64,000 nt of DNA, taken from assembly GCA_964494205.1 (NCBI GenBank), contig CAZBRD010000016.1:11077-75076 (forward strand). The letters run 5' to 3'. Both the position numbers and the translations under genes were made by a program. Under the pieces are notes generated by a model that was given only the letters and a program-made list of their open reading frames with translations, was not told where the DNA came from and did not search any database. Source of the stretch: an uncultured Phycisphaeraceae bacterium (GTDB lineage: Bacteria; Planctomycetota; Phycisphaerae; UBA1845). Shown piece after piece: positions 9,721-47,877 of this stretch (the stretch's first letter is position 1; each line of letters starts with the position of its first letter).

Positions 9721-9741
9721 GTAGGGTCCGCCGTGCGGACC
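9721..9741 (+). repeat. GTAG-type REP-like palindrome
   Basis: GTAG-GGTCCGC-CGT-GCGGACC; related GTAG/GTCG/GCAG-headed hairpins at 26564, 55007, 55133, 55283 and 55881. Confidence 0.6.
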
Positions 9742-9777
9742 AACCTTGGTTCGCAAACGGAAAGGACTCCGAGTCGT

Positions 9778-10617
9778 TTGTCCGACCTCACTCTCACCAA
9801 AGCCATCATCCTCGGCATCGTGCAAGGCCTGACCGAGTTCCTGCCGGTCAGCAGCAGTGCCCACCTCGTCTTCGCGCAGAAGCTGCTCAACCTCGACCCC
9901 AAGAGCGATACGCTCATCCTGTTCGACATCCTCGCGCATGTCGGCACGCTGATCGCGATGGCTGTCGTGTTCGGCCACACGCTGATGCTCTATCTCAAGC
10001 GGCTCGTGCGTGAATCGTCACCCGCGTGGACGCGCGAAAGGTTGGCGTGGCGATTCATGATCCTCGGCATCATTGCATCGATCCCGACGGCCGCCATCGG
10101 TCTTGCGTTCAAACATCAATTGGAAGAATCGCTTTCGGACATCAAGAGCGTCGGGTTTCAGCTCATCATCAGCGGGGTGTTGCTGGTCGTTGTCATCATG
10201 CTGCCGCGCGGGAAGCGCGGCTGGCGGGAGTTCAAATGGACTCACGCGTTGCTGATCGGCGTGGGGCAGGGGGCAGCACTCATCCCCGGCATCTCGCGCA
10301 GCGGCTGCACCATCAGTGTCGCTGGGTATTGCGGCATCCGGCGCCGCTGGGCAGCCGACTTCAGCTTCTTCATCGTAGCCCCAGCGATCCTCGGCGCGCT
10401 CGCGCTGGAGATGAAAGACGTGCTCGAACTTCCCAAGGATCAACTCGCACAACTACCCTGGTCAGCCATGATCTGGGGCAGCGCGATCTCGATGATCGTG
10501 GGAATCCTCTCCCTCTGGCTACTCCTCCGCGTCGTCCGCCGCGCCCACCTGCACTGGTTCGCGCCGTATTGCTGGGTCGCGGGTTTGCTGGCAGTGTTGG
10601 GAGTGTTCTCGAATTGA
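9778..10617 (+). CDS. uppP: Undecaprenyl-diphosphate phosphatase (BacA/UppP)
   Basis: GIVQGLTEFLPVSSSAH and ALIPGISRSGCT motifs; TTG start after AAAGGA. Confidence 0.95.
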   Translation: MSDLTLTKAIILGIVQGLTEFLPVSSSAHLVFAQKLLNLDPKSDTLILFDILAHVGTLIAMAVVFGHTLMLYLKRLVRESSPAWTRERLAWRFMILGIIASIPTAAIGLAFKHQLEESLSDIKSVGFQLIISGVLLVVVIMLPRGKRGWREFKWTHALLIGVGQGAALIPGISRSGCTISVAGYCGIRRRWAADFSFFIVAPAILGALALEMKDVLELPKDQLAQLPWSAMIWGSAISMIVGILSLWLLLRVVRRAHLHWFAPYCWVAGLLAVLGVFSN

Positions 10618-10636
10618 TTCGATGAGAATGTGTAAA

Positions 10637-10669
10637 GGGTGGCACGGTCAAGCCGCAGCTTGGCCGTGG
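10637..10669 (+). repeat. REP palindrome family A, left flank of RAYT
   Basis: GGGTGG-CACGGTCAAGC-CGCA-GCTTGGCCGTG-G; exact inverted copy at 11280-11312. Confidence 0.93.
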
Positions 10670-10686
10670 TGATCGAAGTCAGCCTT

Positions 10687-11259
10687 TCAAGGAACAGGTG
10701 GCGCCGAATCAACTTCGAGCACCACACCATCCATACCCGCGTACTGTCGCGCGCTCGACCAAACCCAATCCGTAGGTGACGCAACCAAACCTCGTTTGAC
10801 AGGATTTCGATGAAGGTACTCAACTGCTTGCCATGCCGTCTTCGCATTAACCATATTTCGATCGTAACCGCCGCCCATCTGCCAAAAATGAAAAGACGAC
10901 TTGCCATTGGAGTCTCGTGTTTCCAATTTCTTCAAAAAAGTCGATTCCAATTGTTTCAGGAACGCAATCGCTTTCCGCGCGACAGGCTGCTTGATGGATT
11001 GCAATAAGACAGGCACACGATAATCGGGACGTCGTGGCAGCAGAAGCACATGAACATGTTCGGGCATAACAACATAAGCCCAAAGTTCAAACTCGTGTTT
11101 TTGACGCGCCGCATCCAAGGATTCGAGAAACCATTGGCGCGTACGATCGCGAGATAGCAAAGGAAGTCGCTGATAACAAGAAAATGTCAGTTCATGGGCA
11201 TTGCCGGCGAAACTCTCACTTCGGCGAAGTTTCTTGACTCTGCCATCGGCGAGGTACAT
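10687..11259 (-). mobile_element. REP-associated tyrosine transposase (RAYT/TnpA-REP, HUH Y1 family)
   Basis: HELTFSC, YVVMPEHVH (HUH), FWQ..GYDR, EYLHRNPVKRGL (catalytic Tyr) and WVWSS motifs; flanked by inverted REPs. Confidence 0.93.
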
Positions 11260-11279
11260 TCGCACCCTTCAGACAATTC

Positions 11280-11312
11280 CCACGGCCAAGCTGCGGCTTG
11301 ACCGTGCCACCC
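11280..11312 (-). repeat. REP palindrome family A, right flank of RAYT
   Basis: Perfect reverse complement of 10637-10669; shares its last base with the stop codon of the protease gene. Confidence 0.93.
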
Positions 11313-13441
11313 TAATCCGCTGCCAGTATTCGCACATTATCGATGAGCGCCTCAAGCAGCGTCTCGCCGCCCGCGTCTTCGATGGAGAAGCGCAGCTGCA
11401 CCTGGTTCGTCGGAGTTATCACCGAAGGCACACCGTTGAAAATCTGCGATCGCCACTCGCGAGATTTTTCTTCATGGCGAATGAGCTGAGTCCACGATTG
11501 TCCCGCGTCGTTGGAGATGGAAACCTCCAGCCCGTCGTCGCCGTCGTCGTTGTCGCGATAGAACCAATAGTCATAGATGAGCGAAAGGTTCGCATGTCCC
11601 GTGAGATCGATCATTGGTGAGTAAAGCACGGTCGGGCCGCCGTCCACGTCGTTGGAATCGGCCTGTCCGCCGAACGGTCCAGTGCCGTAACAGCGGCCGT
11701 CCGCATCGTACGGGCTGTCGAAACCGGGCTGCACGATCTGGTCAACGTAACCGTTAAACAACGTCTGCGTCGGATTGTGACGGAACCATTGCCCGCGAAT
11801 CATGTTTGGGTCGCTCACGACGATCCAATCAGTGTCTTCCGCAAACGTGGCTGAAAACACATGCGCCGAACAAAGCGTGATCTCAGCCGACTCGCTGAGC
11901 GATTCGCCACACAGGTTGGCGGTGAGCAATGAATAATTACCACCGCCGTCACCCTCCACGCTATCGATGACGAGCGTCGGCCCATCAGCCCCCTCAATCG
12001 GCACGCCGTCGTGCCACCACGCGTAGGTCAGCTCGTGATTCGAGGTGGCGTCGGAGAACAAAACCAGATTGTTGAACTCGCAGACGATTTGACTCTGAGA
12101 TGAAAGATCGATTTCCGGAACCGTGCACAGGTTGCCCGTTTGGCCGTTCTGCAACAGGTACACGTCGAACAAATCAATGTGCGTGTCGCCGTCGTAATTG
12201 TTGCACGAACACGATGACGGCGGCGGACCGACGCGCGGGCCTGTCGCGCACGAAGCCCAGTTGGTGATGTCGAACGCGTCGGTGTCTTCATCGAGATCGC
12301 AATCGCCGCGGCGAGCAGGGCAGGCGCTTCGCGCATCCACGAAGTCGGATTGATTGATCAGTGTGCCGATATTGGGGCAATCCGTTGTGCAATGTGAAAC
12401 GATGCCGATGATCTTATCGTTGTAGGTGATCGATGAGCCGGAGTTGCCGCCGGTCGTGTCGACGCGGTGATACCACGCAGGCTCCTGACTACCGAAACCG
12501 GACTCGATGCCGGCGAGCGCGCCCACGCCGCGCTTCTGGGCTTGGCTCAGCTCGCCAACCTCTGCCACTCCGTAGCCAACGACAACAATCTCCACCGGAA
12601 ACTCATCGGGCAATTCAGTCGCGATCGGGCGGTAATCGCCTTGCGCCTCGATGGCTGTCAGTTCCGTCTCCGTGTTGGCAAAACAAGTGAAATAACCCCA
12701 ATCCAGACCCACGCCGCCGTTGATGAAAGCGATCGAGCTCTCGCGCACCATGTACTGATCTTCGGGACCGGGGTGTTGCAGTGAACCATCAGGGTTACTC
12801 AGCGGGACCTGAAACTGCTGCACAAACGCGAACCCCATGCAGTGCCCTGCGCTCACAAAACAACCTGACGTGTTATACATCGACGCCGTGCAACCCACAG
12901 GCATCAGACGGCCGGTCCATCGCTCTTCTGTCGGAAGTCGATCATCAACATCGCAGATACCGCACAAACTTCCCGCCACCGATCCGCCGGCCATTTGATA
13001 AGCGACCTGACCGAGAATGAAACGATTTCCGGTCGTGCCGGCCCCAGCGATCAATTCAATCTCAACCGCGTTGCCGTTGAAATAGGCCGACGTGTTGTAC
13101 CACTCCGCGATCGTGTCGGCTGAGTGGTGCTGCTTCGCATTGTCCGCTAGCGAAGTCACGATCATCGTGCTGCCTTCCCGCAGCGTGACGTCGTCAAAAT
13201 ACAACCGCAGCCAGGCCGCGCCTTCGATTTGAACAACCGCTCGAAACACCGATTGCGGATCGTTCGAGGCATTATCCAGCGGACCCGAATCGAGCGGATA
13301 ATCTTGAAGTTGGCCGACCGGCGCGGTCAGGATGTTCTGTCCGAACGCGCTGGCAGCCGCCAACGCAAAAATAGCAATGCCAAGCATCTGGCACTTTGTA
13401 AGAATCGAAGTCGTCCCTGCGGTAGTTGATAGACCGATCAC
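11312..13441 (-). CDS. Secreted trypsin-like serine protease with dockerin-like, Ig-like and C-terminal beta-sandwich domains
   Basis: SAGHC / D / TTGGNSGS triad motifs; signal peptide; GDCDLDEDTDAFD...NYDGDTHIDLFD pair; YAWWHDG...GNYSL Ig-like segment; GGAGG RBS before GTG. Confidence 0.85.
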   Translation of the reverse strand: MIGLSTTAGTTSILTKCQMLGIAIFALAAASAFGQNILTAPVGQLQDYPLDSGPLDNASNDPQSVFRAVVQIEGAAWLRLYFDDVTLREGSTMIVTSLADNAKQHHSADTIAEWYNTSAYFNGNAVEIELIAGAGTTGNRFILGQVAYQMAGGSVAGSLCGICDVDDRLPTEERWTGRLMPVGCTASMYNTSGCFVSAGHCMGFAFVQQFQVPLSNPDGSLQHPGPEDQYMVRESSIAFINGGVGLDWGYFTCFANTETELTAIEAQGDYRPIATELPDEFPVEIVVVGYGVAEVGELSQAQKRGVGALAGIESGFGSQEPAWYHRVDTTGGNSGSSITYNDKIIGIVSHCTTDCPNIGTLINQSDFVDARSACPARRGDCDLDEDTDAFDITNWASCATGPRVGPPPSSCSCNNYDGDTHIDLFDVYLLQNGQTGNLCTVPEIDLSSQSQIVCEFNNLVLFSDATSNHELTYAWWHDGVPIEGADGPTLVIDSVEGDGGGNYSLLTANLCGESLSESAEITLCSAHVFSATFAEDTDWIVVSDPNMIRGQWFRHNPTQTLFNGYVDQIVQPGFDSPYDADGRCYGTGPFGGQADSNDVDGGPTVLYSPMIDLTGHANLSLIYDYWFYRDNDDGDDGLEVSISNDAGQSWTQLIRHEEKSREWRSQIFNGVPSVITPTNQVQLRFSIEDAGGETLLEALIDNVRILAAD

Positions 13442-23696: not shown

Positions 23697-24094
23697 TCGT
23701 CACCCTTTACACTTTGAACTGACGCCGGCCAAGTTGCGGACGGCGGGTGTGCCACTGCTCTGTGAGCAGTGCCGGTCATTGAATGATTCACCGCCAGTTT
23801 CGTCGCGCACACTGGCTGTAAGCATGTTCCATCGAATGCAACCGTCCGACACATTTACACAGTAACAACCCCCGAAAGCCCCTCACCTCCGTTTATTTCT
23901 AAGGCAGTTTCGCCTATAATTCTCACAATGGAACACTCGCCGAATGCAAGGTTTGGCGTTCCCGCCGACCGCGACGCCTACCGCCACAGGCCCGCCAGGA
24001 AGGACTGACGTAAACATATACAAATGTTGATGTTATGGAGAACAAATTCCAGGTTTCGCGCATATTCCGCCGATACATTATCGGCTCAAAATCG

Positions 24095-45713: not shown

Positions 45714-45747
45714 GGGTGGCATGGTCAAGCCGCAGCTTGGCCATGGC
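45714..45747 (+). repeat. REP family A copy upstream of ptsI
   Basis: GGGTGGCATGGTCAAGCCGCAGCTTGGCCATGGC; differs from the RAYT-flanking copy by one compensatory pair (C-G to T-A). Confidence 0.9.
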
Positions 45748-47564: not shown

Positions 47565-47598
47565 GGGTGGCATGGTCAAGCCGCAGCTTGGCCATGGC
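47565..47598 (+). repeat. REP family A copy downstream of ptsI
   Basis: Identical to 45714-45747, same orientation. Confidence 0.9.
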
Positions 47599-47877
47599 GA
47601 ACGCAATAACGCCTTCAATACCCCGTCGATGTCACGCTGATCACCACACCGTGCCCAAGTGGCTTGCCTGAGCAATGCTCGGGCGTGTGATTCGCCAGGA
47701 ACTCTTGGCCTTTGGTTGCGTGGTCAGGCTCATCTTGATCGCGAACCGAGGGCTTCTTCCGGGGTAACCCTTCGCACGATCGCATCAACCGATTTGTGAC
47801 CATACCGCGCCGCGTCCATGATGGGCCGCGATGCTGCGGTTGAAATCGGCGACAGCAAGAGTCAGAAAGTTCGGCGC

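Follow-up and report, generated by a model that had tools for sequence, protein, structure and literature searches.

The question raised by this locus is whether a transposase gene enclosed by two identical, inverted hairpins travels with them as an insertion sequence, sits among hairpins that serve the host, or acts upon them as a REP-associated tyrosine transposase (RAYT) acts upon its repetitive extragenic palindromes (REPs). The locus occupies positions 10637 to 11312 of a stretch of 64,000 nucleotides (nt), hereafter the window, which belongs to contig C16 of the 5.36-Mb, 42-contig assembly (G000) of an uncultured bacterium of the Phycisphaeraceae; positions given without a contig name are those of the window. 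With a probability of roughly 0.85, the unit is a REPtron, namely a single-copy RAYT of the TnpA-REP type (class 2 Y1 HUH transposase) flanked by inverted copies of its cognate REP. That gene and repeat form a cognate system with a head motif of its own is well supported by sequence comparison, and we infer by analogy with characterized relatives that the enzyme would bind, cleave and mobilize the repeat.

The transposase and its flanking hairpins

The open reading frame (ORF) of the RAYT encodes 192 residues from the GTG at 11265, the true start being likely the ATG at 11259 (190 residues), as in the homologues and in a 190-residue database copy (P0001). The product matches the Pfam family PF01797 (Y1_Tnp) with 26 bits (cut-off, 23) and the NCBIfam model NF047646 (REP_Tyr_transpos) with 88.8 bits (cut-off, 80), the latter value being far below those of two canonical paralogues in the same genome (189 and 181 bits), and stays below threshold for NF033573 (transpos_IS200; 22.7 bits, cut-off, 55). 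The recognizable motifs are H70-V-H72, Y150-x3-N154-P155, W167-x-W169-S170 (WxWSS) and F127-W128-x2-G131-G132-G133-x-D135-R136-N137; in an alignment of 23 clade members H70, H72, Y150, H152, N154, P155, V156, W167, W169 and S170 are invariant, as is the F127-N137 motif. The closest sequence in the PDB is that of Escherichia coli TnpA-REP (4ER8; E 1.8e-4, identity 22%), with which the HUH segment PEH70-V-H72 and the tyrosine segment Y150-L-H-R-N154-P155-V align. An AlphaFold2 model built on the clade alignment (pLDDT 91.9) gave 4er8_A as the top Foldseek match (E 6.8e-8; TM 0.63/0.73), the transposases of ISDra2 and IS608 coming next. The signature of class 2 TnpA-Y1 (TnpA-REP-like) enzymes is Y-x3-NP and that of class 1 (IS200) Y-x3-Q (Quentin et al. 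2018, PMC6006769). The protein is assigned to class 2 because it carries the former rather than the latter, and the HUH motif, the curated model above its cut-off and the TnpA-REP fold agree with this. The preliminary description of the locus, made from its letters, had named an HUH/Y1 transposase with RAYT motifs, which the NF047646 score, the invariant HUH and Y-x3-NP residues and the best fold match bear out. At E<=1e-3, 5023 database proteins were matched, the best of them other than the protein itself being 61-63% identical and, where named, from Phycisphaerae, Humisphaera or 'Planctomycetota'.

A different picture is obtained for the segment that reads the tetranucleotide in the E. coli enzyme, which binds GTAG base-specifically (PMC3479197) through W94, Q95, E100, H101 and R104 (PMC6006769). 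In our RAYT it reads FWQMGGGYDRNMV (FWQMGGGYDRN; FWQxGGGYDRN in the clade). In the HMMER register against 4ER8, W and Q are kept, E is replaced by D135, H by R136, and R104 stands opposite a variable position; MAFFT puts the segment in another register, and in neither is the E-H-x2-R triad kept or R104 given a conserved counterpart. The set of GTAG-contact residues conserved in subclass 2.2, the E. coli type (W94, Q95, E100, H101, R104), is not found in our RAYT.

The inverted arms extend over 10636-10669 and 11280-11313, are 34 nt each and 100% complementary, are separated by 610 nt and lie 15-18 nt from the ends of the RAYT ORF with their heads outward. Both the intact ORF and the perfect complementarity (there given for 33 bp) correspond to what had been described. 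As had also been described, the head strand of the 33-mer, GGGTGGCACGGTCAAGCCGCAGCTTGGCCGTGG, forms a stem of 11 bp that includes a T.G pair and is capped by four loop bases, CGCA; its energy as single-stranded DNA is −12.5 kcal/mol (z −4.2), the complementary strand having A.C in place of T.G and a weaker fold (−9.7 kcal/mol). At <=3 mismatches the window holds four copies (10637+, 11312−, 45714+ and 47565+), and dinucleotide shuffles gave matches in 0/100. The two distal copies differ from the flanking ones only by C9>T and G30>A, by which a C-G pair becomes T-A, confirming the single compensatory change that had been pointed out. Both flanking copies are identical to the commonest variant of the 33-mer in the genome. 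An Rfam search of 10300-11700 gave no match at E<=1.

Conservation of the head and of the hairpin

A count of the 33-mer over the whole genome had been set beforehand as the check on which a REP system could fail, by returning no further copies. At <=6 mismatches, 153 copies (family A) were found, of which 50 are exact and 27, 23, 21, 17, 10 and 5 differ by one to six bases, respectively; 16-mers of the repeat are the most frequent of the genome (106 copies). When the 153 copies are aligned with 20-nt flanks, information falls sharply before base 1 and after base 33, leaving weak flank signals (C at −1 in 69/153; YGAA after base 33). Inverted doublets with heads outward and spacers of 9-14 nt account for 7 pairs (14 copies); the remaining 139 copies are singlets, as are the 50 exact ones. 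Copies in mid-ORF, that is with at least 80 open codons on each side, are 17/153, as opposed to 881/1500 random positions; a stop-to-stop proxy for spanning ORFs is confounded, the REP being open in five of six frames, and the mid-ORF test was used instead. Thus, the gene is flanked by high-copy, mostly extragenic cognate REPs, as the definition of a REPtron has it.

Per site and copy, the head has 0.023 substitutions, the stem arms have 0.040-0.045 and the loop has 0.18. With respect to the master sequence, 99 stem-pair cells are changed, 67 of which are still paired, 43 with a change on both sides; after shuffling of the partners, both-sided changes number 4.6 on average and 11 at most, so that 0/1000 shuffles reach 43. 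The T.G pair is retained in 146/153 copies.

The strongest evidence that the enzyme may read the head and the base of the stem on a folded strand is conservation within its clade. The loci compared are the best 80 of 571 confirmed stretches encoding a RAYT relative, with one representative genome per species, protein identities of 46-64% and flanks of at most 1.5 kb; by record title, 79 are of planctomycete lineage (Planctomycetota, Planctomycetales, Pirellulales, Phycisphaerae, Isosphaeraceae, Gemmataceae, Ca. Kuenenia and others) and one is from Acidobacteriota (L051). Local alignment of the upstream with the downstream flank revealed inverted repeats in most of them, nearly all starting with GGGTG[GC]CA[CT]G. 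This 10-mer, taken as the strict head, is found within 350 nt of the gene on both sides in 57/80 loci, on one side in 8/80 and on neither in 15/80 (50, 4 and 14, respectively, for the 68 loci with at least 300 nt on each side), with a density of 3.76 per kb near the gene (201 in 53,497 nt) and of 0.23 per kb further out (37 in 157,707 nt). Its orientation is outward in 74 and inward in 28 cases upstream, and outward in 63 and inward in 36 downstream. Most loci without a strict head have close variants when the flank alignments are read, e.g. GGGTGGCACT, GTGTG[GC]CATG or GGGTGCC[GC]xG. With the relaxed head G[GT]GTG[GC]C, a contiguous stem of at least 7 bp begins exactly at base 7 in 276/465 instances, versus 241/2000 random positions, and this combination of head and hairpin is present at least once in 76/80 loci and at least twice in 73/80. 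Over its first eight bases the stem comes in 71 versions, nearly all of which start with CA[CT]G. Because 76/80 loci share the combination and 71 stem forms follow it, it is the head, its spacing and the first stem pairs that are conserved, the rest of the hairpin being free to change: within one RAYT clade, head and hairpin position have been kept and the hairpin interior has turned over completely. These data, together with the compensatory changes within the genome, agree with the earlier suggestion that the hairpin and not only its sequence is conserved; adjacency, the 153 copies and the 76/80 loci likewise uphold the earlier assignment of the RAYT to a REP family of its own.

Gene and repeat are unevenly distributed among relatives. 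A protein match at E<=1e-20 was obtained in 14 of the 30 nearest genomes, with none in the same-genus genome (94% complete) and with matches in 9/18 of the same family, at most 54% identical among the matches listed. A 17-mer of the REP, at <=1 mismatch, occurs 160 times in our genome versus 3 times in the same-genus genome without the gene, and 220, 62, 40 and 22 times in four same-family genomes, the RAYTs of which are 45-54% identical. In a phylum-wide sample of 251 genomes, each at least 90% complete, a clade RAYT (E<=1e-30) was called in 28, as a single copy in 19 of these; enrichment of the head 10-mer (at least 25 copies and at least 2.5 times the reversed control) was found in 14/28 genomes with the gene versus 11/223 without it (odds ratio 19, Fisher p 3e-9, related genomes not being independent). 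A domesticated transposase, as the preliminary description had supposed ours to be, would be a single-copy gene passed on vertically and kept at one genomic position (Bertels et al. 2017); the copy number is as expected. The uppP and peptidase genes of the window were found in none of the 80 homologous loci; the peptidase gene was absent from every other fetched locus too, and uppP was seen elsewhere only in loci fetched for it, never beside a RAYT; the UppP of the nearest (same-genus) genome is only 48% identical, and the relatives are too distant to judge synteny or an empty site.

The genome contains four IS200-like genes and, besides these, three genes that score above the NF047646 cut-off: ours and the two canonical RAYTs on C27 (189 bits) and C12 (181 bits). 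The canonical two are 23-24% identical to our RAYT, which is the one gene of its clade in the genome, with no near-identical paralogue. The REPs that flank the two canonical genes, GTAGGGTCCGCC... and GTAGGGTGGGTGC... (in full, GTAGGGTCCGCCGTGCGGACC and GTAGGGTGGGTGCTCTGCACCCACC), are present in 45 and 72 copies, and the enzymes carry WQRRFWEHMIRDE and WHRRFWEHVVRDE, in which the FWEHxxR segment is kept (WQRRFWEHxxRDE). In one cell, head type therefore goes with the sequence of the GTAG-contact segment, a correlation across three genes. A more modest reading would be that G[GT]GTG[GC]CA[CT]G and GGGYDRN make up a recognition code orthogonal to that of GTAG and FWEHxxR, both being present in one cell.

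Two further repeat families have heads of the clade type. Family C (GTGTGCCACTGCTCTGTGAGCAGTGC; 63-64 copies) is sharply delimited on its 5' side at GTGTG, with a head that conforms to the pattern of the clade, G[GT]GTG[GC]CA[CT]; the hairpin at 23745-23771, previously taken for a distant relative of the REP, is a real repeat, as had been claimed, and belongs to this other family. Family A' (GGGTGGCATGGCCAAGCGCAGCGCCGCCATG; 33-34 copies, e.g. C4:222722, C17:58357 and C18:170) is almost identical to the repeat that flanks a 50%-identical RAYT homologue in another metagenome-assembled genome (L064:1394-1429), a likeness that fits either a lost paralogue or long conservation of the repeat. Families A' and C may both be served by one enzyme that cross-mobilizes several families, or may have been orphaned by the loss of paralogues; either would do. 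Copies of family A' often lie 50-130 nt from a copy of family A. Other abundant repeats of the genome are not tied to a RAYT: a palindrome of the TCCCTCTCCCTCTTAGGGAGAGGGA type (16-mer in up to 68 copies), AAGAGACCCTCACCCTGCCCTCTCCC (approx. 35) and CGAGAAGGGATTCTCG (31).

Features are collected in table 1. The RAYT-REP unit fills the whole gap between two convergent ORFs: the REP at 10637 begins 20 nt past the stop of an uppP-like ORF (9733-10617), and the last base of the other flanking REP is shared with the stop codon (11312-11314) of an ORF of 709 residues. In-frame copies of family A within ORFs that have clear Pfam domains (L123, L127 and L126) encode, depending on the frame, the peptides GWHGQAAAWPW, VARSSSSLAV or TAKLRLDRAT; four further long ORFs that contain a copy match nothing in Pfam and are perhaps not real genes. 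The hairpin at 47659-47687, also proposed previously as a distant relative, was rejected as such, as it is unique in the genome (1 match at <=5 mismatches) and folds no better than shuffles (z −1.9). The REP copy at 47565 lies 62 nt upstream of this hairpin, which is possibly of the ordinary, terminator-like sort.

Table 1. Coordinates of the RAYT gene, of REP copies and of related features (positions in the window, or contig and positions in assembly G000).
Feature	Position	Strand	Remarks
RAYT coding sequence (TnpA-REP-like, class 2 Y1 HUH transposase)	10687..11265	-	PF01797, NF047646, motifs, fold
REP copy 3' of the RAYT gene	10637..10669	+	outward-pointing head GGGTGG; stem of 11 bp, T.G included; loop CGCA; closing G
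REP copy 5' of the RAYT gene	11280..11312	-	head points away from gene; 15 nt upstream of GTG 11265
Dispersed singlet REP, T-A subfamily	45714..45746	+	T-A for C-G at stem pair 9/30
Dispersed singlet REP, T-A subfamily	47565..47597	+	same change at pair 9/30
Family C REP copy	23747..23772	+	consensus GTGTGC + CACTGCTC..GAGCAGTG; 63-64 copies
Canonical RAYT (L001)	G000:C27:5098-5547		flanked by GTAG-headed REPs
Canonical RAYT (L002)	G000:C12:162583-163032		flanked by GTAG-headed REPs
ABC-transporter ATPase ORF (L123)	G000:C6:218864-220612		two family A copies, one in the ABC_tran match and one past oligo_HPY
GT4 glycosyltransferase (L127)	G000:C17:57709-59250		one family A copy between its two domains
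ORF with tetrapyrrole-methylase and HemD domains (L126)	G000:C5:262230-263870		one family A copy in the linker

Proposed mechanism, strand polarity and rival explanations

By homology with E. coli TnpA-REP and with the IS200/IS605 transposases, the enzyme would bind the REP folded as a hairpin in single-stranded DNA and read the unpaired 5' head (GGGTGG; G[GT]GTG[GC] in the clade) along with the first stem pairs (CAYG/CRTG). A nearby cut would be made by Tyr150, aided by a metal held by His70 and His72, and the strands would be rejoined so that REP units are spread or removed, the spreading unit appearing here to be the 33-nt singlet. With the head as guide, the cleavage dinucleotide would be CC or CA instead of CT: in the guide model, CC is predicted through G3 and G4 of GTGG, and CA through T2 and G4. 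The preliminary description had likewise supposed that the cleavage specificity may be different, which is a fair inference by analogy with the Marinomonas enzyme, in which a change to GTGG led to cleavage at CC (PMC8266576).

A trace of such a process may be contained in the orientation of the REPs, which can be read because the copies are singlets. With inverted doublets removed and windows of 10 kb, the strand that carries the head is the locally G-poor one in 122/139 copies of family A (116/139 with windows of 100 kb), in 31/33 of A', in 59/61 of C, in 37/37 of GTAG1 and in 55/61 of GTAG2; over the five families, which serve two RAYT types, values are 83-100% depending on family and window size, with 39-55% for G-rich control words. 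The copies covered include those at 10637, 11312, 23747, 45714 and 47565. The orientation of family A is unrelated to that of neighbouring genes (36 sense and 34 antisense in tandem gene contexts), crude gene calls have no strand bias with respect to skew (52% on the G-rich strand), and gene skew tracks the regional skew (coefficient 1.09) far more than the gene's own strand (0.017). GC skew is pronounced at the regional scale, reaching +/-0.19 in 20-kb bins, and patchy, its sign changing several times between and within contigs. It passes from negative to positive next to dnaA on C8 and next to a DnaA-like gene on C1, and the locally G-rich strand is the one that carries the 23S rRNA gene, rpoC and the L16 gene (taken as a marker of the S10 operon); even so, the case for the G-rich strand being the leading one in this genome is weak. 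In the GTAG families, whose stems are perfect, head and loop are all that distinguishes one strand from the other; whatever sets the polarity must therefore recognize the head, and this suggests a RAYT at work on single-stranded DNA. We only tentatively propose that the way singlet REPs are oriented preserves a record of some step in RAYT action that is coupled to replication, a possibility to which we give somewhat less than even weight. If it is so, the strong association with GC skew may be the mark left in one genome by a coupling between replication and the spread of REPs, which has long been proposed but is unproven. In the literature consulted, much of it available in part, no statement on REP polarity versus skew was found, save that in Pseudomonas fluorescens SBW25 the tandem REP arrays of one side of the genome are oriented oppositely to those of the other (PMC3116915).

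Strand polarity was also sought in a closed genome of 4.1 Mb from another planctomycete family (G267), where the heads have no net orientation, lying in inverted doublets approx. 155 nt apart. This genome has 109 head 10-mers versus 11 of the control, mostly in such REPIN-like pairs, and its matches to the clade RAYT profile are weak (best E, 4.5e-14).

Several observations weigh against the REPtron as proposed. The cognate link between RAYT and REP is drawn from adjacency and comparison. Pairing is broken in 32/99 changed stem cells, and the compensatory cells are inherited in few subfamilies (T-A at 9/30, 20 copies; TT/AA at 14-15/24-25, 8 copies) and therefore stand for few independent events. 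The REPIN model holds that doublets are the mobile form and singlets decayed remnants (PMC3116915), whereas 139/153 copies are singlets here. No RAYT of their own was found in the genome for families A' and C in spite of their clade-type heads. Among the relatives, genome G013, with no detected RAYT, has 95 near-identical copies of the 17-mer (it is 81% complete, and many copies are at contig ends); the 11 head-enriched genomes without the gene include nine of family f42, three other members of which have it; and the strict 10-mer is not enriched in 14 of the genomes that have the gene. When five of the head-enriched genomes without the gene were searched again (four of f42 and one of f68), the RAYT matches obtained were all weak (E 1e-6 to 1e-14). 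Thus, REPs seem able to outlive the RAYT gene, as reported for E. coli strains (PMC3733652). Finally, if the G-rich strand is the leading one, the polarity of the copies is the reverse of that in the IS608 model, so that copies on the lagging-strand template would have to be preferentially excised, or insertion would take a route other than that of IS200/IS605.

Three other explanations were weighed. That gene and hairpins are an autonomous insertion sequence of the IS200/IS605 type, moving as a 676-bp unit with the dispersed hairpins as solo ends or chance relatives, could be argued from the shared Y1 HUH superfamily (26 bits for PF01797, with ISDra2 and IS608 as the next fold matches) and from the four IS200-like genes of the genome. 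One gene copy versus 153 hairpins is hard to reconcile with it. Elements of the IS200/IS605 type are multi-copy units, often with a tnpB, and their left and right subterminal hairpins are different and in direct orientation, whereas both hairpins beside our gene have one sequence and face each other in inversion; within the 610 nt that separate the arms there is no second gene and no room for tnpB, and NF033573 scores only 22.7 bits versus its cut-off of 55. Moreover, the tyrosine motif is the Y-x3-NP of class 2 and not the Y-x3-Q of class 1 (PMC6006769). This explanation is very improbable. Scarcely less improbable is that the hairpins are selected by the host as terminators, mRNA stabilizers or protein binding sites, independently of the enzyme, the RAYT sitting among them, e.g. 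because REPs attract insertions. Host roles of REPs are known (PMC3733652, PMC3479197), head-enriched genomes without a clade RAYT exist, and many copies abut gene ends, that at 11312 touching a stop codon. A chance neighbourhood, however, would not be expected to place head and hairpin beside the homologous gene in 76/80 loci with 71 stems, nor each of the three RAYTs of the genome between repeats of its own family; a terminator role would not give an orientation that ignores that of the neighbouring genes (36 sense versus 34 antisense), and the head is the least variable part though it lies outside the hairpin.

That the relation of RAYT and REP is historical, the enzyme being now inactive or repressed and the repeats a fossil kept by drift or gene conversion, is unlikely, if less so than the two explanations above. 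It is in line with the inhibitory C-terminal tail of E. coli TnpA-REP (PMC3479197), with the 103/153 copies that differ from the master sequence and with the patchy distribution of the gene among relatives. Against it stand the intact ORF with all catalytic motifs conserved, the 50 copies that are identical over 33 nt with 27 more that are one base off, and the identity with the master sequence of both copies beside the gene. By taking all this into account, the REPtron, with an enzyme that would still act on its repeats, is the preferred explanation.

Comparison with known systems

REPs with a 5' tetranucleotide at the foot of the hairpin, flanking a single-copy RAYT, are established (PMC2817692, PMC3333891, PMC3479197), and the canonical REP has been defined by a 5' GT[AG]G at 0-2 nt from the hairpin, a GC-rich basal stem and a loop of 2-5 nt (PMC6006769). 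Our repeat conforms, with GTGG at bases 3-6, 0 nt from an 11-bp stem, and a 4-nt loop, the stem being 'fully paired' only if G.T counts. The head had been presented as a non-GTAG one: it does differ from GTAG, but the stem-adjacent GTGG falls within GT[AG]G and thus within the canonical range (PMC6006769), while many of the relatives' repeats read GTGC, which is outside that definition. Thus, the element as a kind is not new, its variant motif has already been tabulated for related bacteria, and its novelty is limited.

The tabulated precedents are in Additional file 2 of Quentin et al. 2018 (PMC6006769), where hairpin feet GGGTG, GGGT or GGGTGC (i.e. GGGTG[GC]) are listed under MCL subclass 2.2 for PmikA01 BAM05346.1 (GGGTGCCACGCCC...), PlimA01 ADG68431.1 (GGGTGGCTGGGGTTGA...), AcapA01 ACO33629.1 and TsaaA01 ADV81227.1. 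Like ours, these repeats have the same head (GGGTGCCACGCC..., GGGTGGCTGGGG..., GGGTGCCCCA...) directly 5' of the hairpin beside a class 2 RAYT, and from this repeat signature the four proteins would belong to the clade of our RAYT. We take the genome codes to be those of Phycisphaera mikurensis, Planctomyces limnophilus, Acidobacterium capsulatum and Terriglobus saanensis; if rightly so, the phyla match those of our loci, which are of planctomycete lineage except for the one from Acidobacteriota. In the available parts of that work, the extended head and its conservation across the phylum are not discussed.

The E. coli TnpA-REP/BIME REPtron (4ER8; PMC3479197, PMC3333891) has in common with ours the Y1 HUH fold with HUH and Y-x3-NP motifs, a single-copy gene, inverted REPs and an imperfect hairpin whose foot is immediately preceded, on the 5' side, by an unpaired motif; it differs in that ours has GGGTGG instead of GTAG, a T.G pair instead of a bulge, mostly singlets rather than BIMEs (bacterial interspersed mosaic elements) and a protein only 22% identical. 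GTGG heads are listed for SBW25 (Nunvar et al., PMC2817692), and degenerate heads, with GTGG in GTAG-20 of Opitutus terrae, were described by Di Nocera et al. (PMC3733652); there, too, GTGG is next to the stem in high-copy repeats cognate to a flanking RAYT. The RAYTs of the SBW25/O. terrae type are of other subclasses (Pseudomonas group 3 / subclass 2.5, PMC6006769 Table 1), 61% of the SBW25 REPs are in doublets and 18% are singlets (PMC3116915), as opposed to 139/153 singlets here, and the SBW25 consensus sequences listed have no GG before the tetranucleotide, unlike ours. Nor does the predominance and best conservation of inverted doublets by which Bertels and Rainey define REPINs apply to family A, with its seven doublets and with singlets for all 50 exact copies.

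Among planctomycetes, Rhodopirellula baltica has several REP families (GTAG-20/21/22) and many tyrosine transposase genes with corresponding flanking repeats, including TIRYTs and TIRtrons (Di Nocera et al. 2013, PMC3733652), and its REPs are, like ours, occasionally inside ORFs. Its families are GTAG-tagged, unlike ours, which is probably not identical with any of them. The TIRYT motif GGGG[AT][CG]A[CG], compared by eye with GGGTGGCA, did not match.

What is added here is how large the family is and that it consists mostly of singlets, the conservation in 76/80 loci of the longer signature G[GT]GTG[GC]CA[CT]G, its pairing with GGGYDRN and the co-residence with two GTAG systems, points of which no discussion was found in the literature searched, part of which was available in excerpt. 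The outcome is a well-documented REP-RAYT system from a phylum where such elements are little studied. An experimental counterpart is the REPtron Mb of Marinomonas sp. MWYL1 (Corneloup et al. 2021, PMC8266576), in which cleavage occurred at CC once GTGG had been put in place of GTAG, and in which T2 and G4 serve to read CA sites; there, the role of the head as guide, the same as that predicted for our system, was demonstrated by experiment. In Marinomonas, GTGG is an engineered change in a GTAG system, whereas here GTGG, or GTGC in the repeats of some relatives, is the natural head. The three RAYTs and two head types of one genome would provide natural orthogonal enzyme-substrate pairs for studying guide reading and the choice of the cleavage site by Y1 transposases.

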